A stretch of DNA of 64,000 nucleotides from NCBI GenBank assembly GCA_905235525.1, contig CAJOLW010000025.1:3452-67451 (forward strand), given 5' to 3'. This DNA comes from an uncultured Bacteroidaceae bacterium. GTDB taxonomy: Bacteria > Bacteroidota > Bacteroidia > Bacteroidales > Bacteroidaceae. Both the position numbers and the translations under genes were made by a program. This document shows, piece after piece, positions 4,175 through 48,230 of this stretch. How positions within the stretch are numbered: the stretch's first letter is position 1; each line of letters begins with the position of its first letter. The notes below the pieces were generated by a model. It worked only from the letters and a program-made list of their open reading frames with translations, was not told the origin of the DNA and made no database searches.

Positions 4175-5442
4175 AGACAGATAATCAAACCATGGACAGA
4201 GCCATTCCTGTCAGCGTACAGCGCAAAAGAAGAATGGTACGATATGGCAAGTATGCCGCCATCGTGGCTGTTGTGATGGGCGTGGCAGTATGGCTGGGCA
4301 CACTGATGATGAGTTCAGTAGATAAAAAGAGCCTCATCACCTCGCAGGTGGACAGGGGCATCATCGACGTGAGCATCATCGCCACAGGCAAGGTAGTGCC
4401 CGCCTTCGAAGAAGTCATCATCTCACCCATCAGCGCACAGATTCTGGAGGTCTATGCCCATAGCGGCGACACCGTAGATGTGGGCACTCCCCTCCTCCGC
4501 CTTGACCTTCAGTCGGCTCAGGCTGACTACTCCAAAGCCCTCGATGAGCAGGAAATTCGTCGGCAACAGATGGTGCAACTCACCACCAACACCGAAACCC
4601 AACTGAGTGACCGGCGCATGCAGTTGGAGGTGGAGGAGATGAAGATTGGGCAGTTGGAAGCACAACTGCGCAACGAGCAATATCTAGACAGTCTTGGCTC
4701 AGGCACGAAAGACCGTGTGCATCAGGCGGAAATCACCCTCCGCACCGCACAAATGCAACTGAAGCAACTGAGGCAGCAGTATGAAAACGAGGTGCGAGTG
4801 AGAAAAGCCGACCTGCGCATGAAGCAATTACAGGATGGCATTGCCGACAAGAGCCTTGACGAAACACGTCGCACCCTCGATGGTGCCAACATCCGTTCGC
4901 CCCGCAAAGCGACTCTCACCTACATCAGCAACGAAATCGGCAGCATCGTCGGGTCAGGCTCCAAAGTGGCAGTGGTGAGCGACCTCACCCATTTCAAAGT
5001 CGATTGCAGCATTGCCGACACCTATTCCGACCGCGTGATGGCAGGAGGACGTGTACTCGTCAAAATCGGGAGGGAACGCCTTTTCGGCACCATCAACACC
5101 GTCACGCCTCTCAGTCAGGACGGAGTCATCACCTTCACCGTCTTGATGGATAACCCCAGCCACCCCAAACTCCGTTCAGGCTTGAAGGCAGAAGTGTTTG
5201 TCATCACCAACATCAAGGAAGACGTGCTGCGCATCCGCAACGGTTCTTACTATACAGGTGCAGGCGATTATACATTATATATATATAAAGATGAACATAC
5301 CCTTGTGCCCCGCACCATCCACCTCGGCGACTGCAACTATGATTACGTGGAAGTCATCAGCGGATTGGAAGAGGGTGACAGCGTGGTGGTGAGCGACATG
5401 CAGAGGTATAAGGGAAAAGAGAAGATTCGAGTGAATGAGTGA
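4171..5442 (+). CDS. HlyD/MacA-type periplasmic adaptor (membrane fusion protein)
   Basis: 423 aa with an N-terminal TM anchor, a lipoyl-like segment (GKVVPAFEEVIISPISAQILEVYAHSGDTVDVGTPLLRLD), a long coiled coil and a beta-barrel C-terminus. Confidence 0.85.
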   Translation: MKTDNQTMDRAIPVSVQRKRRMVRYGKYAAIVAVVMGVAVWLGTLMMSSVDKKSLITSQVDRGIIDVSIIATGKVVPAFEEVIISPISAQILEVYAHSGDTVDVGTPLLRLDLQSAQADYSKALDEQEIRRQQMVQLTTNTETQLSDRRMQLEVEEMKIGQLEAQLRNEQYLDSLGSGTKDRVHQAEITLRTAQMQLKQLRQQYENEVRVRKADLRMKQLQDGIADKSLDETRRTLDGANIRSPRKATLTYISNEIGSIVGSGSKVAVVSDLTHFKVDCSIADTYSDRVMAGGRVLVKIGRERLFGTINTVTPLSQDGVITFTVLMDNPSHPKLRSGLKAEVFVITNIKEDVLRIRNGSYYTGAGDYTLYIYKDEHTLVPRTIHLGDCNYDYVEVISGLEEGDSVVVSDMQRYKGKEKIRVNE

Positions 5443-5507
5443 AAAAACTGAGTTCTTTAGAAGTTAAATTTTTCACTTTTCATTTTTCATTTTTCACTCA
5501 TATTATT

Positions 5508-5515
5508 TACCTTTG
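5508..5515 (+). promoter_or_regulatory. Bacteroidota -7 box (TACCTTTG) for the response regulator / kinase pair
   Basis: TACCTTTG lies 17 nt upstream of ATG 5532, in the 89-nt gap after the adaptor gene. Confidence 0.5.
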
Positions 5516-5531
5516 CAAAAAATATAAACAC

Positions 5532-7013
5532 ATGATACTGATTGTTGACGATGACAGAGCCATTCGGGTGGCATTGACATTGATGCTGGAACGCAATGAT
5601 TACACGGTGATAAGTGCTGACGGACCTGATGCCGCCATGGAAGTGGTGCGCCACCAAGCCGAGTTGGAACTGGTGCTGATGGACATGAACTACACCCTCT
5701 CCACCGATGGCGAAGAAGGACTCACACTGCTCCGACAGGTGAAGGTGTTCCAACCCAACCTGCCCGTGATTCTCATGACCGCATGGGGCAGCATCGACTT
5801 GGCAGTGCAGGGAATGAGAAACGGAGCCTTCGATTTCATCACCAAACCATGGGATAATGGGGTGCTGCTGGAGCGAATCGAAACCGCCATACTGCTCAAC
5901 CGCCCTCACACAACGGAAGAACCTGCCGATAGACCCTTACACAACCTCTCAACCGACGTCGACGACATCGGTGAGGCGACATCGACGACATCGATTGACC
6001 GACATCGTCGACGTCGGTTTGGAGGTGCTGAAGACACCCTCATCATCGGGCAGTCGCAAAGTCTGCTGAGTGCCCTCGCCACTGTTGAACGAGTGGCACC
6101 TACCAATGCCCCAGTGCTCATCACGGGCGAGTCGGGCACAGGCAAGGAACTCATTGCACAAGCCATCCACGAACAGAGCCGACGGGCAGGAAAACCCTTT
6201 GTGAAAGTGAACCTCGGCGGTATATCAACAGCCCTGTTCGAGAGTGAGATGTTCGGACACAAGAAGGGTTCGTTCACCGATGCCAAGAGTGACCGCACGG
6301 GACGCTTTGAACTGGCAGAGGGCGGCACAATCTTTCTGGATGAAATCGGCGAGTTGGAACTGGCGAGCCAAGTGAAACTCCTGCGGGTGCTGCAAGACCA
6401 GACCTATGAGGTGCTGGGCGACAGCACCAGCCGCCACGCCAACGTGCGTGTGGTGTGTGCCACTAATGCCGACCTCCGCCAGATGGTCAAGGAGAAAACC
6501 TTCCGCGAAGACCTCTTCTATCGCATCAACCTCATCAACATCCATCTCTCACCCCTGCGCGAACGCACAGACGACATCCCTTTGCTCGTTCACCACTTCA
6601 TCCGCCAAACCTGCATGAGCAATAGTTTACCCATTGCCACCGCCTCTGCCGAAGCCATCCGATACCTGCAAACCCTCCCCTTCTATGGCAACATCCGCGA
6701 ATTGAAGAACTTAGTGGAGCGTACACTGCTCATGAGCGCAGACCCCTCCCTCACCTCCCCCAAAGGGGAGGGGTGGATACTTTCCGCAATGAATTTCCAA
6801 GAAGCTTACCAACAGAATCCCGTTGATGGAGGTGACCACTCTCCCCATTTAGGGGGAGCGGGGAGGGGGTCTGCTCTTACCCTTGAAGAAATCGAACGGG
6901 CTTCCATCGCAGCCTCCCTCGAAAAGCACCAAGGCAATCTCTCTCTGGTGGCAAAGGAACTCGGCATCAGCCGTGGGGCACTCTACCGAAAGATAGAAAA
7001 ACACGGGCTGTGA
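5532..7013 (+). CDS. sigma-54-dependent (NtrC-family) response regulator
   Basis: Start placed at MILIVDDD; the ORF-track start 5439 reads through heptad-repeat spacer. It has a receiver domain and an AAA+ sigma-54 interaction domain (GESGTGKELIAQAIH, GSFTDA variant of GAFTGA, IFLDEIGEL, VRVVCATN). It ends in a Fis-type HTH (LVAKELGISRGALYRKIEKHGL). Confidence 0.9.
   Translation: MILIVDDDRAIRVALTLMLERNDYTVISADGPDAAMEVVRHQAELELVLMDMNYTLSTDGEEGLTLLRQVKVFQPNLPVILMTAWGSIDLAVQGMRNGAFDFITKPWDNGVLLERIETAILLNRPHTTEEPADRPLHNLSTDVDDIGEATSTTSIDRHRRRRFGGAEDTLIIGQSQSLLSALATVERVAPTNAPVLITGESGTGKELIAQAIHEQSRRAGKPFVKVNLGGISTALFESEMFGHKKGSFTDAKSDRTGRFELAEGGTIFLDEIGELELASQVKLLRVLQDQTYEVLGDSTSRHANVRVVCATNADLRQMVKEKTFREDLFYRINLINIHLSPLRERTDDIPLLVHHFIRQTCMSNSLPIATASAEAIRYLQTLPFYGNIRELKNLVERTLLMSADPSLTSPKGEGWILSAMNFQEAYQQNPVDGGDHSPHLGGAGRGSALTLEEIERASIAASLEKHQGNLSLVAKELGISRGALYRKIEKHGL
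5951..6019. repeat. 69-bp palindromic element inside the REC/AAA+ linker coding region
   Basis: AACCGACGTCGACGACATCG (5951-5970) matches the reverse complement of CGACATCGTCGACGTCGGTT (6000-6019) at 18/20. It encodes TDVDDIGEATSTTSIDRHRRRRF. Confidence 0.6.
6739..6873. repeat. 135-bp G/C-hairpin element with terminal inverted repeats, in frame inside the regulator gene
   Basis: Left end is CAGACCCCTCCCTCACCTCCCCCAAAGGGGAGG and right end is CTCCCCATTTAGGGGGAGCGGGGAGGGGGTCTG. The right arm is nearly identical to 30378-30408. Confidence 0.75.
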
Positions 7014-22551: not shown

Positions 22552-25479
22552 ATGGAATACAATTTTAGAGAGATTGAGCAGAAATGGCAACAGCGATGGG
22601 TGGAAGAGAAGACCTATCAGGTTGCTGAGGACAAGAGCAAACCGAAGTTTTATGTGTTGAACATGTTCCCCTACCCCAGTGGGGCGGGTCTGCATGTGGG
22701 ACACCCATTAGGATATATTGCGAGTGACATCTATGCGCGTTTCAAGCGTCTGCAGGGATATAACGTGCTGAACCCGATGGGGTATGATGCGTATGGTCTG
22801 CCTGCTGAACAGTATGCGATTCAGACGGGTCAGCACCCTGAGAAGACGACCTTCCAGAACATTGACCGCTATCGTGAGCAACTGGACAAGATTGGCTTCT
22901 GCTTTGACTGGGACAGAGAGGTGAGAACTTGTGCACCTGGCTACTACAAGTGGACGCAATGGGCGTTCCAGAAGATGTTCAACTCTTTTTTCTGTCTGAA
23001 AGAGCAGAAGGCAATGCCGATTGAGAAACTCATCCAGCGTTTCGAAACCAAGGGAACGCTGAGCGACGATGGCGGCACGGTGCAGGTGGCTTGTACGGAA
23101 GAACTGCACTTCACTGCTGAGGAGTGGAACTCGTGGGACGAGAAGAAGAAGAGTGACGTGCTGATGAACTACAGGATTGCCTTCATGGGCGAGACGATGG
23201 TGAACTGGTGTGCTGGACTGGGTACCGTGCTGGCGAATGACGAGGTGGTTGACGGTGTGAGTGTGCGTGGCGGTTTCCCTGTGGAGCAGAAGAAGATGAG
23301 GCAGTGGTGCTTGAGAGTGAGTGCCTACGCACAGCGACTTTTGGACGGACTGGACACGATAGAGTGGAGCGACAGCATCAAGGAGACGCAGAAGAACTGG
23401 ATTGGCCGAAGTGAAGGTACGGAAGTGGAATTCAAGATTGCCAGCCCCCTCCCAACCTCCCCCAAGGGGGAGGAGAACCATCCGGATGGCAATCACTCTC
23501 CTTTGGGGGAAACGGAAGGGGCCTCCTTCACCATCTTCACCACCCGTGCCGACACGATGTTTGGTGTCACCTTCATGGTGCTGGCTCCTGAGAGTGAACT
23601 GGTGGAGAAAGTGACGACGGCTGAACAGAAGGCTGCCGTGGAGGAATATATCAAGTATGTGAAGGGCCGCACGGAGCGTGAGCGCATGATCGACCACAAG
23701 GTAACGGGTGTGTTCTCGGGTTCTTACGCCATCAATCCTTTCACTGGCGAGAAAAATCCTATCTGGATTTCTGAGTATGTATTGGCAGGTTACGGTACGG
23801 GTGCCATCATGGCTGTGCCTGCGCATGACAGCCGCGACTACGCTTTTGCCAAGCATTTCGGCTTGCCGATTATTCCGCTGATTGAAGGGGCTGACGTGAG
23901 CGAGGAGAGTTATGATGCCAAGGAGGGTATCGTGACGAACTCACCACGGAAGGATGTGAAGCCATACATCGACTTCAGCCTCAACGGACTGACCGTGAAG
24001 GAGGCGATTGCTGCCACGAAGAAGTATGTGACGGAGACTGGTATTGGTCGTGTGAAGGTGAACTACCGTCTGCGTGATGCCATCTTCTCCCGTCAGCGTT
24101 ATTGGGGCGAGCCCTTCCCTGTCTATTACAAGAACGGCATCCCGACGATGATTCCAGAGGAGTGCTTGCCTATCGAACTGCCGGAGGTGGATAAGTTCCT
24201 GCCTACGGAGACGGGTGAACCGCCTCTGGGCAATGCTACCGTATGGGCTTGGGATGAGGTGAACAGGAAGATTGTGGAAAACACGAAGATTGACAACAAG
24301 ACGGTGTTCCCTATTGAACTCTACACCATGCCTGGCTTTGCAGGCAGTTCGGCTTACTATCTGCGCTATATGGATCCACATAACGACAAGGCACTGGTGA
24401 GCAAGGAGGCTGACGAATATTGGCAGAATGTGGACTTGTATGTGGGTGGTAGCGAACACGCTACGGGTCACTTGATTTACAGCCGCTTCTGGAACAAGTT
24501 CCTCTTCGACCTTGGCGTATCCTGCAAGGAAGAACCTTTCCAGAAATTGATTAACCAAGGTATGATTCAGGGCAGGAGCAACTTCGTGTATCGCATCAAG
24601 GACACGAACACGTTTGTCTCCTTCGACAAGAAAGATGGCTATGACGTGACACCTATCCATGTGGATGTGAACATCGTGAGTGCCGATGTGCTGGATGTGG
24701 AGGCCTTCAAGGCTTGGCGTCCTGAGTACAACACCGCCGAGTTCATCTTGAACGACGAGGGCAAGTACATCTGCGGATGGGCTGTGGAGAAGATGTCGAA
24801 GAGTATGTTCAACGTGGTGAACCCTGATATGATTGTGGAGAAGTTTGGTGCTGACACGCTGCGTCTCTACGAGATGTTCCTCGGTCCTGTGGAGCAGAGT
24901 AAACCTTGGGATACCAATGGCATTGACGGTTGCCACAGATTCCTGAAGAAATTGTGGAAGTTCATGACCACAGAGGAAGGTGCCATCAACGCTACCGACG
25001 GTGCTGCCTCGAAGGAGGAACTCAAGGCACTGCACACTCTCATCAAGAAAGAGACAGCCGACATCGAAGCGTTCTCATACAACACAACCATTGCTGCCTT
25101 CATGGTGTGCCTCAACGAACTGACAAAGTTGAAGAGCGAGAGCCGTGAGGTGAAGGAGACGCTGGCCATCCTGCTGGCACCGTTCTGTCCTCATGTGGCT
25201 GAAGAGTTCTGGCACCTGCTGGGACATGACACCACGGTGTGCGACGCTCCATGGCCATCCTTCAACGAAGACTACCTGAAGGAAGACTCGGTGAAGATGA
25301 TGGTGGCGTTCAATGGTAAGGCACGCTTCCCACTGGAGTTCCCCGCTGACGTGACTAAGGAGGAAGCGGAGAAGGCTGCGCTTGAAAGCCCACAATCAGC
25401 CAAGTGGATGGAAGGATTCACGGTGGCAAAGGTGATTGTGGTGCCGGGCAAGATGATTAATGTGGTATTAAAAAAGTGA
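22552..25479 (+). CDS. leuS: leucine--tRNA ligase
   Basis: 975 aa with HIGH-type motif [19 protein letters not shown] motif VEKMSKSMF and editing-domain sequence [21 protein letters not shown]. Confidence 0.97.
23443..23524. repeat. G/C-hairpin element with inverted arms, in frame inside leuS
   Basis: AGCCCCCTCCCAACCTCCCCCAAGGGGGAGGAG ... CTCTCCTTTGGGGGAAACGGAAGGGGCCT. It encodes [27 protein letters not shown] between the conserved GTEVEF and [10 protein letters not shown] blocks. Confidence 0.7.
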
Positions 25480-29990: not shown

Positions 29991-30263
29991 ATGAACATTC
30001 AACCATTGGCAGACAGGGTGCTGGTGCTCCCTAAGCCTGCGGAAGAAAAGACGGTGGGCGGAATAATCATCCCTGACACCGCAAAGGAAAAGCCCCTGCA
30101 GGGCGAGGTTGTCGCTTGCGGCAACGGTACGAAGGACGAGGAAATGGTCGTGAAAGTGGGCGACCAGGTTCTCTATGGCAAGTACTCAGGCACGGAACTG
30201 GAATATGAGGGCGTGAAGTACCTCATGATGAGACAGAGCGATGTGCTGGCTATTCTCAAATAA
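29991..30263 (+). CDS. groES: co-chaperonin GroES
   Basis: 90 aa: [46 protein letters not shown]. Confidence 0.97.
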
Positions 30264-30264
30264 G

Positions 30265-32042
<1,778 letters not shown>

Positions 32043-47323: not shown

Positions 47324-47765
47324 CGACTTTTTTCCCGAACCCTCACCACAAAATAACGGCAACTTACATTATTTATAGAAAAAACGCTCACCATTCATTA
47401 TTTTCCCTCTTTTCAACGGCAACAGTAAAGCGACTTACACCGCACCTCAAGAAAGGGTCACACTCGTCATCACAATTACCTTATGCCCATCAAGGTAATT
47501 ACGGCTACGAGCGTACCATATTACCCATAAAACGTGACTTCGTGTGAAGCAGAGCCTCATTAGTTACGCACTTTTGTGTTATACTTACATTTTTTATCGT
47601 CACAAATTGACAATCTTTTTCTTTCCCCACCAACAATTCTCACAAAATTTTTCCCTCGTCTCATATATTCTCAGAAAAACACCTACCAACCATTTCGCTG
47701 ACATCACCGAAATGGTTGCCTATAAGAAAAAATCGAATATGTTTGTATGCTCCAAAGAAAAGCAC

Positions 47766-47773
47766 TACCTTTG
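47766..47773 (+). promoter_or_regulatory. Bacteroidota -7 box (TACCTTTG) for the thioesterase gene
   Basis: 15 nt upstream of ATG 47788. Confidence 0.5.
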
Positions 47774-47787
47774 CAAAAATAATCAAT

Positions 47788-48180
47788 ATGGCAAATTATA
47801 TTTTTGAGTTGAAGGATAAGGTACGTGACTATGAGTGCGACCTTCAGGGCATTGTGAACAATGCGAATTATCAGCACTATCTGGAGCATTGCCGACATGA
47901 GTTTCTGCTGGCGCACAACATCAGTCACGAGAAGGGGACGGATGCCGTGGTGGCTCGTCTGACGATGCAGTTTAAGGTGCCGCTGAAGAGTCGTGATGAG
48001 TATGTGACGAAACTCTGGATTAAGAAGGAAGGCGTGCGCTACATCTTTATGCAGGACATCTTCCGTCTGCCCGACATGAAGTTGTGCATCCGTGCACAGG
48101 TGGATTCGGTGTGTCTCGTGAATGGCACACTGGCTGAGAGCCCTGAACTGAACGAGAAATTTGCTCCCTTTCTTCAATAG
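47788..48180 (+). CDS. acyl-CoA thioesterase (4HBT/YbgC-like hot-dog fold)
   Basis: Start placed at MANYIFELKDKVRDYECDLQGIVNNANYQHYLEHCRHEFL. Confidence 0.85.
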   Translation: MANYIFELKDKVRDYECDLQGIVNNANYQHYLEHCRHEFLLAHNISHEKGTDAVVARLTMQFKVPLKSRDEYVTKLWIKKEGVRYIFMQDIFRLPDMKLCIRAQVDSVCLVNGTLAESPELNEKFAPFLQ

Positions 48181-48184
48181 TTAA

Positions 48185-48218
48185 AGCCCCCTCCGACTCC
48201 CCTGTTTAGGGGAGTGAG
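48185..48218. repeat. single arm of the G/C-hairpin element family
   Basis: AGCCCCCTCCGACTCCCCTGTTTAGGGGAGTGAGG, immediately after the thioesterase stop. Confidence 0.6.
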
Positions 48219-48230
48219 GTTAGGATTATC

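Follow-up and report, generated by a model that had tools for sequence, protein, structure and literature searches.

A probable case of two hairpin-repeat arms bracketing native linker sequence in a sigma-54-dependent response regulator of an uncultured Bacteroidaceae bacterium

The stretch of DNA analysed here, called the window, comprises 64,000 nucleotides of contig CAJOLW010000025.1 (assembly GCA_905235525.1) from an uncultured Bacteroidaceae bacterium, and the segment in question is 135 bp long (6739-6873) and lies inside the gene of an NtrC-family sigma-54-dependent response regulator. We conclude, with a probability of about 0.7, that this segment is composed of two 42-bp inverted arms (6739-6780 and 6832-6873) placed around approximately 51 bp of the regulator's own sequence, and is not one element with a remodelled core. 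With the same probability, the arms are read as those of a selfish, non-autonomous hairpin repeat, abundant in rumen Prevotellaceae, which is tolerated in a flexible linker and there brackets native sequence. The features on which the argument is built are given below; loci of the genome collection are cited by L numbers and regulator orthologues also by P numbers.

5532..7013, + strand: host gene, NtrC-family sigma-54-dependent response regulator (REC, AAA+, lid, HTH_8), identified by Pfam domains, 120 orthologues and common synteny
6739..6780, + strand: left arm, C-rich strand first, CAGACCCCTCCCTCACCTCCCCCAAAGGGGAGGGGTGGATAC, encoding (A)DPSLTSPKGEGW(I); matched by a hidden Markov model (HMM) of the repeat unit at 6740-6779 (E = 6e-9) and aligned with other arms
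6781..6831, + strand: bracketed host sequence, not repeat DNA, with the middle WILSAMNFQEAY, encoding LSAMNFQEAYQQNPVDGG (strand and helix of the lid tail, part of the linker); from orthologue alignment, uniqueness and AlphaFold
6832..6873, + strand: right arm, inverted copy of the unit, GTGACCACTCTCCCCATTTAGGGGGAGCGGGGAGGGGGTCTG, encoding (G) and 14 residues; unit HMM match at 6872-6834 (E = 2e-8)
30265..30408, + strand: intergenic copy consisting of a left arm, an AT-rich core, the conserved box TAGAATACCTCCCCACTAACATTCTACTC and a right arm; it fills the groES-groEL spacer

The host gene corresponds to the open reading frame (ORF) 5439..7013 (+), with a likely true start at 5532 (MILIVDDD). 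The product shows the domain order REC, sigma-54 AAA+, lid and Fis-type HTH of the NtrC family (PF00072, PF00158, PF25601 and PF02954, all above the cut-offs), and the gene belongs to a conserved cluster of OEP, HlyD-like, regulator and histidine-kinase genes, a synteny common to the orthologues whose contigs were fetched. By Pfam, the 135 nt (45 codons) are in frame between AAA_lid_14, which ends at residue 408 of 493, and HTH_8, which starts at residue 450. One of the six frames is open over the segment, and it is the frame used by the regulator. The first-pass annotation of this DNA, made from the sequence alone, had described an in-frame segment of 135 bp in the AAA+/HTH linker with imperfect terminal inverted repeats, and both statements are borne out: the GC-rich ends pair as inverted repeats over 28 nt at 71% identity without gaps, or over 42 nt at approximately 80% with gaps. 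Its assignment of the segment to the repeat family of the groES-groEL copy also stands. The 20-mer GGGGAGCGGGGAGGGGGTCT is common to both copies and has exactly 2 occurrences in the window, where shuffled sequences gave an expectation of 0, and the right arm at 6838-6872 agrees with 30374-30408 at 94% over 35 nt. The further claim, that the right arm equals 30378-30408 apart from one inserted base, was correct about the inserted base but missed an additional mismatch at the first base.

When all arms of the window were aligned, a unit consensus of approximately 42 bp was obtained, AAGACCCTCCCC-N-CCCTCCC-loop-GGGAGGG-AGTGGTTAC, in which each unit carries a small hairpin; an element ends on either side in one such unit, the second inverted relative to the first. 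The left arm in the regulator contains its own small hairpin (CCTCCCC/GGGGAGG). The right arm is 36/42 identical to the right arm of 30265-30408, and its subtype is that of the right arms of the intercistronic copies described below. W415 and I416 are encoded by the innermost 8 nt of the left arm, GTGGATAC, which leaves the junction with the core fuzzy by two or three codons. Compared with the arm-less orthologue P0109, the arms would take the place of a few native linker residues, and the linker between AAA+ and HTH would grow by about 14 residues, not by 45. The right arm is predicted to be disordered (residues 430-448 with a predicted local distance difference test score, pLDDT, below 50 in AlphaFold2), and the Pro/Ser/Gly-rich peptide encoded by the arms is probably disordered in general. 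Since the arms are almost without stop codons and encode such a peptide, they can be tolerated in flexible inter-domain linkers.

It could be argued that no mobile DNA is involved and that the segment is an ordinary low-complexity linker, arisen by slippage or by convergence at the protein level, or an artefact of assembly. Linkers are indeed often of low complexity and variable in length. However, the arms match intergenic copies at the DNA level, hundreds of copies are present in many metagenome-assembled genomes (MAGs) from independent assemblies, and an independent NCBI MAG holds the same 135 bp. We give this explanation hardly any credence.

The middle of the 135 bp is host sequence. In an alignment of 120 regulator orthologues with 60-81% identity, a segment of the form [ILV]-x-[ST]-A-x-[DN]-F-[QK] follows the lid helix ERTLLM after a few residues in all aligned orthologues, including those without arms. 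The arm-less orthologues have a 4-residue PDxx "empty" state in common; P0109 reads LLMS-PDRE-IVTADDFKANLQ...TLEEIER, P0023 reads PDA-QLSAADF and P0056 reads NPNEP-QLAATDF. In the window protein, the conserved segment W415-ILSAMNFQEAY stands between the arms. Conservation of L417, D421 and F422 is 90% or higher among 50 orthologues, and AlphaFold2 with the orthologue alignment modelled a strand at residues 415-417 and a helix at 419-427 (pLDDT 72-77). Moreover, the Pfam lid profile reaches over PDREIVTADDFKANLQPDT in the arm-less P0109, and NtrC1 and ZraR as well have 20-25 residues between the lid and the HTH. The core DNA (6777-6840) matches solely the orthologue L003, whereas many loci contain the right part of the core found between groES and groEL. 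Around this regulator core, which is orthologous codon by codon, the arms of sister orthologues belong to different subfamilies, and the locus of the L005 orthologue contains 0 units in 17.6 kb. The argument for a native core rests on protein conservation, structure and uniqueness, because the DNA-level similarity tests were all non-significant.

The first-pass annotation had taken the segment as one element whose core became open after insertion. The contrast that it drew between open genic cores and the AT-rich, stop-containing intergenic core extends to the whole family, in which genic cores are short and open and intergenic ones are longer, AT-rich and interrupted by stops; nevertheless, the idea of an element core opened by selection is not upheld here, the middle being the regulator's own lid tail. 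An alignment with orthologues lacking the insert had also been proposed in that annotation, with the same linker sequence in repeat-free orthologues named as evidence to the contrary. In the alignment, the core is present in arm-less orthologues and the arms are not.

A related explanation supposes a single MITE-like insertion (MITE, miniature inverted-repeat transposable element) of approximately 135 bp, which perhaps replaced native linker and whose core was remodelled by selection, so that the arm-less orthologues would be decayed descendants. Whole elements do enter genes in frame and replace native codons, the arms are convergent in orientation and near-perfect mirror images in L002, the RNA fold pairs part of the core, an apparent decayed right arm is seen in L006, and the core peptide ISANEE of the canonical element loosely resembles ILSAMNF. 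However, the distance between the motif and the lid helix in the arm-less orthologues is typical of the family, these orthologues are basal or interspersed in the tree, and a comparable segment exists in NtrC1 and ZraR. The three near-invariant residues and the modelled structure also speak against a remodelled repeat core, as do its uniqueness to the regulator gene, its vertical evolution while the arm subtypes switch, and its non-significant similarity to canonical cores. A single insertion is therefore considered improbable, and we prefer two arms around native sequence.

The arms at this one site differ between lineages. The regulator arms of the window and of L003 belong to the subtype AGACCCCTCCCTCACCTCCCCC; those of the sister lineage L002 are AGCCCCCTCCCATCCTCCCCC, both near-perfect mirror images of each other; and in L004 the left and right arms are of different subtypes, the right one matching an element in the other linker of the same gene. 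In a rough neighbour-joining tree of the regulator orthologues, the arm-less states are basal or interspersed, and therefore several gains or several losses are required. The last ~370 bp of the gene, arms included, are 93-98% identical between the window (6640-7013) and L003 (GCA_034185845.1, 10900-11277), compared with approximately 80% over most of the rest. Since the identity spans the whole gene end, it points to allelic recombination between lineages and not to a special conservation of the arms, and suggests that the two recently exchanged this arm-bearing 3' end by homologous recombination. Within single copies, the hypervariable left loop equals the right loop in 12 of 22 cases, with 5.7 expected and 12 reached in 1/5000 shuffles. 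This match fits the transposition of whole symmetrical elements, or the templating of one arm from the other.

The paired arms might alternatively be kept for a function of the nucleic acid in cis, either as an mRNA hairpin acting on ribosome pausing or mRNA decay, or as a DNA cruciform or another G-rich/C-rich structure. The RNA of 6730-6882 is predicted to fold into a single long hairpin of -78 kcal/mol (z = -6.4), and 0 of 200 shuffles folded as well. Most orthologues have arms at the same two positions, the stems are conserved and the loops variable (3/4 differences to L003 fall in a loop), and the left and right loops co-vary within copies. Nevertheless, several orthologues are arm-less, and the identity with L003 covers the whole 3' gene end and not the arms alone. 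No Rfam family reached its gathering score anywhere in the window, and the sub-threshold matches were all at chance level, such as whalefall-1 with 20.6 against a cut-off of 37 bits. The stability of the hairpin is a property of the repeat and not of the regulator site, because the same arms are found in dozens of unrelated genes and spacers. We regard a function of this kind as distinctly improbable, and continue with arms tolerated around native sequence.

The arrival of copies can be followed in the gene for leucyl-tRNA synthetase (LeuRS, window 22552-25479), which was compared with its orthologues at loci L120-L122. At 86-95% identity, these proteins range from 947 to 1051 residues, owing to three in-frame insertion sites. 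The copy in the window and the states of its site are as follows.

23443..23526, + strand: short in-frame copy in LeuRS, 28 residues; frame and orientation agree with those of the regulator arms, and 15 native bases (DS[DN]ES) are replaced
Same site in L120 (95% identical protein): empty, GCG GAC AGC AAC GAG AGT TTC
Same site in L121: 36-bp solo arm
Same site in the window: 84-bp form
Same site in L122: 120-bp form; the same 120 bp are found again at a second site of the gene, there replacing 39 native bases

The window form is equal to the 120-bp form less 39 internal bases. Native codons are missing at the filled sites, 84 bp standing for 15 bp and 120 bp for 39 bp, and all length changes are multiples of three. 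No target duplication was found at any LeuRS site when filled and empty states were compared, and the flanks of 22 canonical copies showed no consistent one. In the groES-groEL spacer, the close relative L120 has 131 bp without arms, unrelated to the spacer of the window. Insertion thus takes place without target-site duplication and removes native bases. Two candidates were discarded in the course of these comparisons. For the intercistronic subtype, duplication of a TA target was rejected, the genic copies being without TA flanks, and capture of the 120-bp LeuRS core from the native sequence of the third site was dropped, the similarity between native codons and core being non-significant. 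A search of protein representatives with the 33-aa LeuRS insert returned one irrelevant repetitive protein.

With regard to the mechanism, we tentatively suggest that the repeat may spread by way of hairpin or single-strand DNA in a REPIN-like manner. Once in place, arms might be renewed by later ectopic gene conversion or by templating of one arm from the other, and homologous recombination between lineages could carry arm-bearing gene segments further. The effect on the regulator would be near neutral.

The extent of the family was estimated in two ways. The 22-mer AGACCCTCCCCTCACCCTCCCT, from the left arm of the groES-groEL copy, was present in at least 113 stretches in a scan of a genome collection, and the matches listed were all from ruminant-gut Prevotellaceae/Bacteroidaceae MAGs, very many of them from MAG RUG242. 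Neither this 22-mer nor the arm 20-mer was present in viral contigs. A census with the unit HMM was then made over the window and ~1 Mb of loci (8-kb stretches), and yielded 306 units, with 120 convergent pairs, 2 divergent neighbours and 66 solo units. The canonical element is 110 bp long (112 bp with the usual C...G). Its terminal repeats are perfect over at least 22 bp, its conserved core of 28 bp is found in either orientation, and its variants range from 113 to 151 bp. A pair was counted as genic when it lay inside an ORF of at least 200 codons that remained open for at least 30 codons on either side, and by this heuristic 54 of the 120 pairs (45%) are genic, in frame in long ORFs. Solo arms in frame in long ORFs numbered 25 of 59 and occurred in both orientations.

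Genic pairs fall into a few lengths, namely 110 bp (22 copies), 122 bp (9), 115 bp (6) and 118 bp (3), whereas the non-genic pairs are mostly 123-236 bp long and have AT-rich cores with stops. The conserved peptides of the genic copies comprise 37-41 aa. Nearly all of the 110-bp genic copies use one frame and one core orientation and encode (Q/K/E)TLPSPSLQGGSSISANEETNEQGNHSLPVGRVRGGS; a second genic subtype encodes DPPLTLPVREGVVTFEDESTLPSKHSTPSLIGRVRGGS. Among the host proteins are Mfd, MutS2, UvrA and LeuRS, and in the first three the inserts are located at domain borders. The DNA-repair genes contain one to three in-frame copies each: Mfd at L094 has three in one gene, MutS2 is affected at L073 and L113, and UvrA at L115. 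The UvrA copy follows directly after UvrA_inter, and the MutS2 copy directly precedes MutS_V.

Several observations weigh against the reading of two arms around native sequence and were set against the evidence above. The census loci go back to a single arm subtype used as seed, and the label "genic" depends on the ORF heuristic. The DNA of the regulator core is not significantly similar to the arm-less linkers, nor to canonical cores in either direction. Pfam lid constructs with the arms removed scored 72.6 bits compared with 69.6 bits for a scrambled motif, a weakly discriminating difference of 3 bits. The palindromy of 6739-6873 extends some way into the core, and the peptide likeness between ISANEE and ILSAMNF, although faint, exists. 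The near-perfect mirror-copy arms of L002 are more easily explained by one event than by two independent events, and no intermediate that would explain arms around native sequence in convergent orientation was observed at the regulator locus. The near neutrality of the arms is an assumption. Furthermore, clustering of the 1424 locus ORFs revealed no recurrent transposase-like family, a negative that is weak since it covers ~1 Mb in 8-kb stretches, and phmmer with an approximate IS200/IS605 TnpA query found no match in the window or in the ~1 Mb of loci.

The copy at 30265-30408 represents a subtype of its own. It occupies the whole groES-groEL spacer, from the stop at 30263 to the ATG at 30411, and its right arm ends 2 nt before the groEL ATG. 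With 17 further copies in L012, L021, L023, L028, L030, L034, L038, L051, L065, L087, L090, L095, L105 and L108, the intercistronic subtype comprises 18 copies with the box CCYCCCCAC-N-ACATTCTACTC and the right arm AGGGGGAGCGGGGAGGGGGTCT. All 18 have the same orientation relative to the genes. The right arm ends 2-5 nt before an ORF-opening ATG in 18/18 copies, exactly 2 nt before it in 14, and approximately ten different genes are concerned; the start of the left arm mostly lies 0-6 nt past the upstream stop. As a result of this placement, GGAGG stands 8 nt before the start codon, and the loop of the box carries CCUCC. The phylum Bacteroidota largely ignores Shine-Dalgarno signals. Judging from the sequence, pairing of the arms would bring the upstream stop next to the downstream start, and the subtype is possibly a mobile operon-junction cassette that couples termination to re-initiation. 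If so, it would amount to portable translational coupling. A more general proposal takes the arms as modular, self-symmetrising hairpin units that are installed around host DNA, coding DNA included, by a process that deletes target bases and leaves no target duplication, the intercistronic subtype then being such a cassette; taken as a whole, this proposal is doubtful.

To our knowledge, palindromic repeats in frame in housekeeping genes have had essentially one textbook case, the Rickettsia palindromic elements (RPEs). About half of the RPE copies lie in ORFs, in frame, and encode a conserved peptide, according to the account of Ogata et al. (2000) given in PMC10969869. As far as that account goes, the present repeat resembles them in being palindromic and ~100-150 bp long, in having many copies in frame in unrelated housekeeping genes at fold-compatible sites, and in encoding no transposase; as for the RPEs, a palindromic repeat encodes conserved peptides in ORFs, here in 54 of 120 pairs. 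However, it comes from another phylum, the Bacteroidota, as a Prevotella-like family of free-living gut anaerobes, and no sequence relation is expected. It also differs in its extremely G+C-rich arms, in its modularity (solo arms, swaps of subtype at a fixed site, bracketing of host sequence), in the replacement of native bases on insertion, and in the sister subtype at operon junctions. By analogy of behaviour, the Prevotella-like family appears to work like an RPE; we do not file it as a member, and the matches listed were all from Prevotellaceae/Bacteroidaceae.

In REPINs, a GC-rich palindrome forms inverted doublets; they are extragenic and are mobilised by RAYT (Bertels and Rainey 2011, PMC3116915). 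The present repeat shares with them the short, GC-rich, imperfectly palindromic unit, the inverted doublets around a spacer and the solo units as remnants, together with high copy number, vertical inheritance within a lineage and the lack of target-site duplication. The doublet architecture is evident from the hairpin in each arm and from the 120 convergent pairs against 2 divergent neighbours and 66 solo units. Nevertheless, REPINs are extragenic by definition, whereas ~45% of the pairs and 25 of 59 solo arms are intragenic and in frame here; REPINs are known mainly from Proteobacteria; and no clear GTAG or CGTC tag was seen. No RAYT was found in the window or in the ~1 Mb of loci, a search that was not genome-wide.

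Bacterial MITEs such as Correia, ERIC, Nezha and QMITE are likewise small, non-autonomous and multi-copy, with terminal inverted repeats and occasional in-frame fusions (PMC10969869, PMC11602168). The 42-bp arms, the perfect repeats of at least 22 bp in the 110-bp copies and the 306 units in ~1 Mb agree with such elements. However, MITEs normally have target-site duplications and terminal repeats shared with an insertion sequence, and neither was seen in the window or in the ~1 Mb of loci. Moreover, ~90% of MITEs across prokaryotes were intergenic in a pan-prokaryote census (PMC11602168). A 2024 review only speculates on in-frame palindromic repeats in prokaryotes other than Rickettsia (PMC10969869). 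No published description of the repeat family was found, exact sequence and peptide strings being included in the search.

The window thus points to a second, independent and much larger in-frame system in abundant gut and rumen Bacteroidota, which reaches LeuRS, Mfd, UvrA, MutS2 and two-component regulators. The allele series at one site (empty, solo arm, short and long) offers a readout of insertion chemistry and of the tolerance of proteins for inserts of 12-40 residues. Annotation and the comparison of MAGs are affected as well, for the inserts shift the lengths of orthologues by up to ~100 residues. The repeat may, in addition, serve as a marker of lineage and host range among rumen Prevotellaceae.

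The regulator gene contains a second palindrome in its other linker. At 5944-6026, a near-perfect palindrome of 83 bp is in frame in the REC-to-AAA+ linker (NLSTDVDDIGEATSTTSIDRHRRRRFGG). Its 41-nt arms show 78% complementarity and are separated by 1 nt, and the palindrome as a whole consists of three 23-bp CGACRTCGWCGACRTCGG repeats. No second copy is present in the window, and the sequence bears no relation to the GC-rich arms. The orthologues L001, L004 and L079 have the canonical 110-bp element in this linker instead.

One further arm of the window stands by itself behind a gene.

48183..48223, + strand: solo arm AAAGCCCCCTCCGACTCCCCTGTTTAGGGGAGTGAGGTTAGG, 3 nt past the stop of ORF 47716..48180; unit HMM E = 1.5e-4

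This position is that of a terminator-like hairpin, but a T run is absent. At L045, L053, L064 and L004, several mechanically called ORFs have a right-type arm peptide at their N-terminus, behind a short leader; MVEKQQSILSTPLPHREGQGGESD is one example. The arms either lie just ahead of the true start and lengthen the gene calls, or form N-terminal extensions of the proteins, and this is likely to have given rise to wrongly annotated starts in these MAGs.

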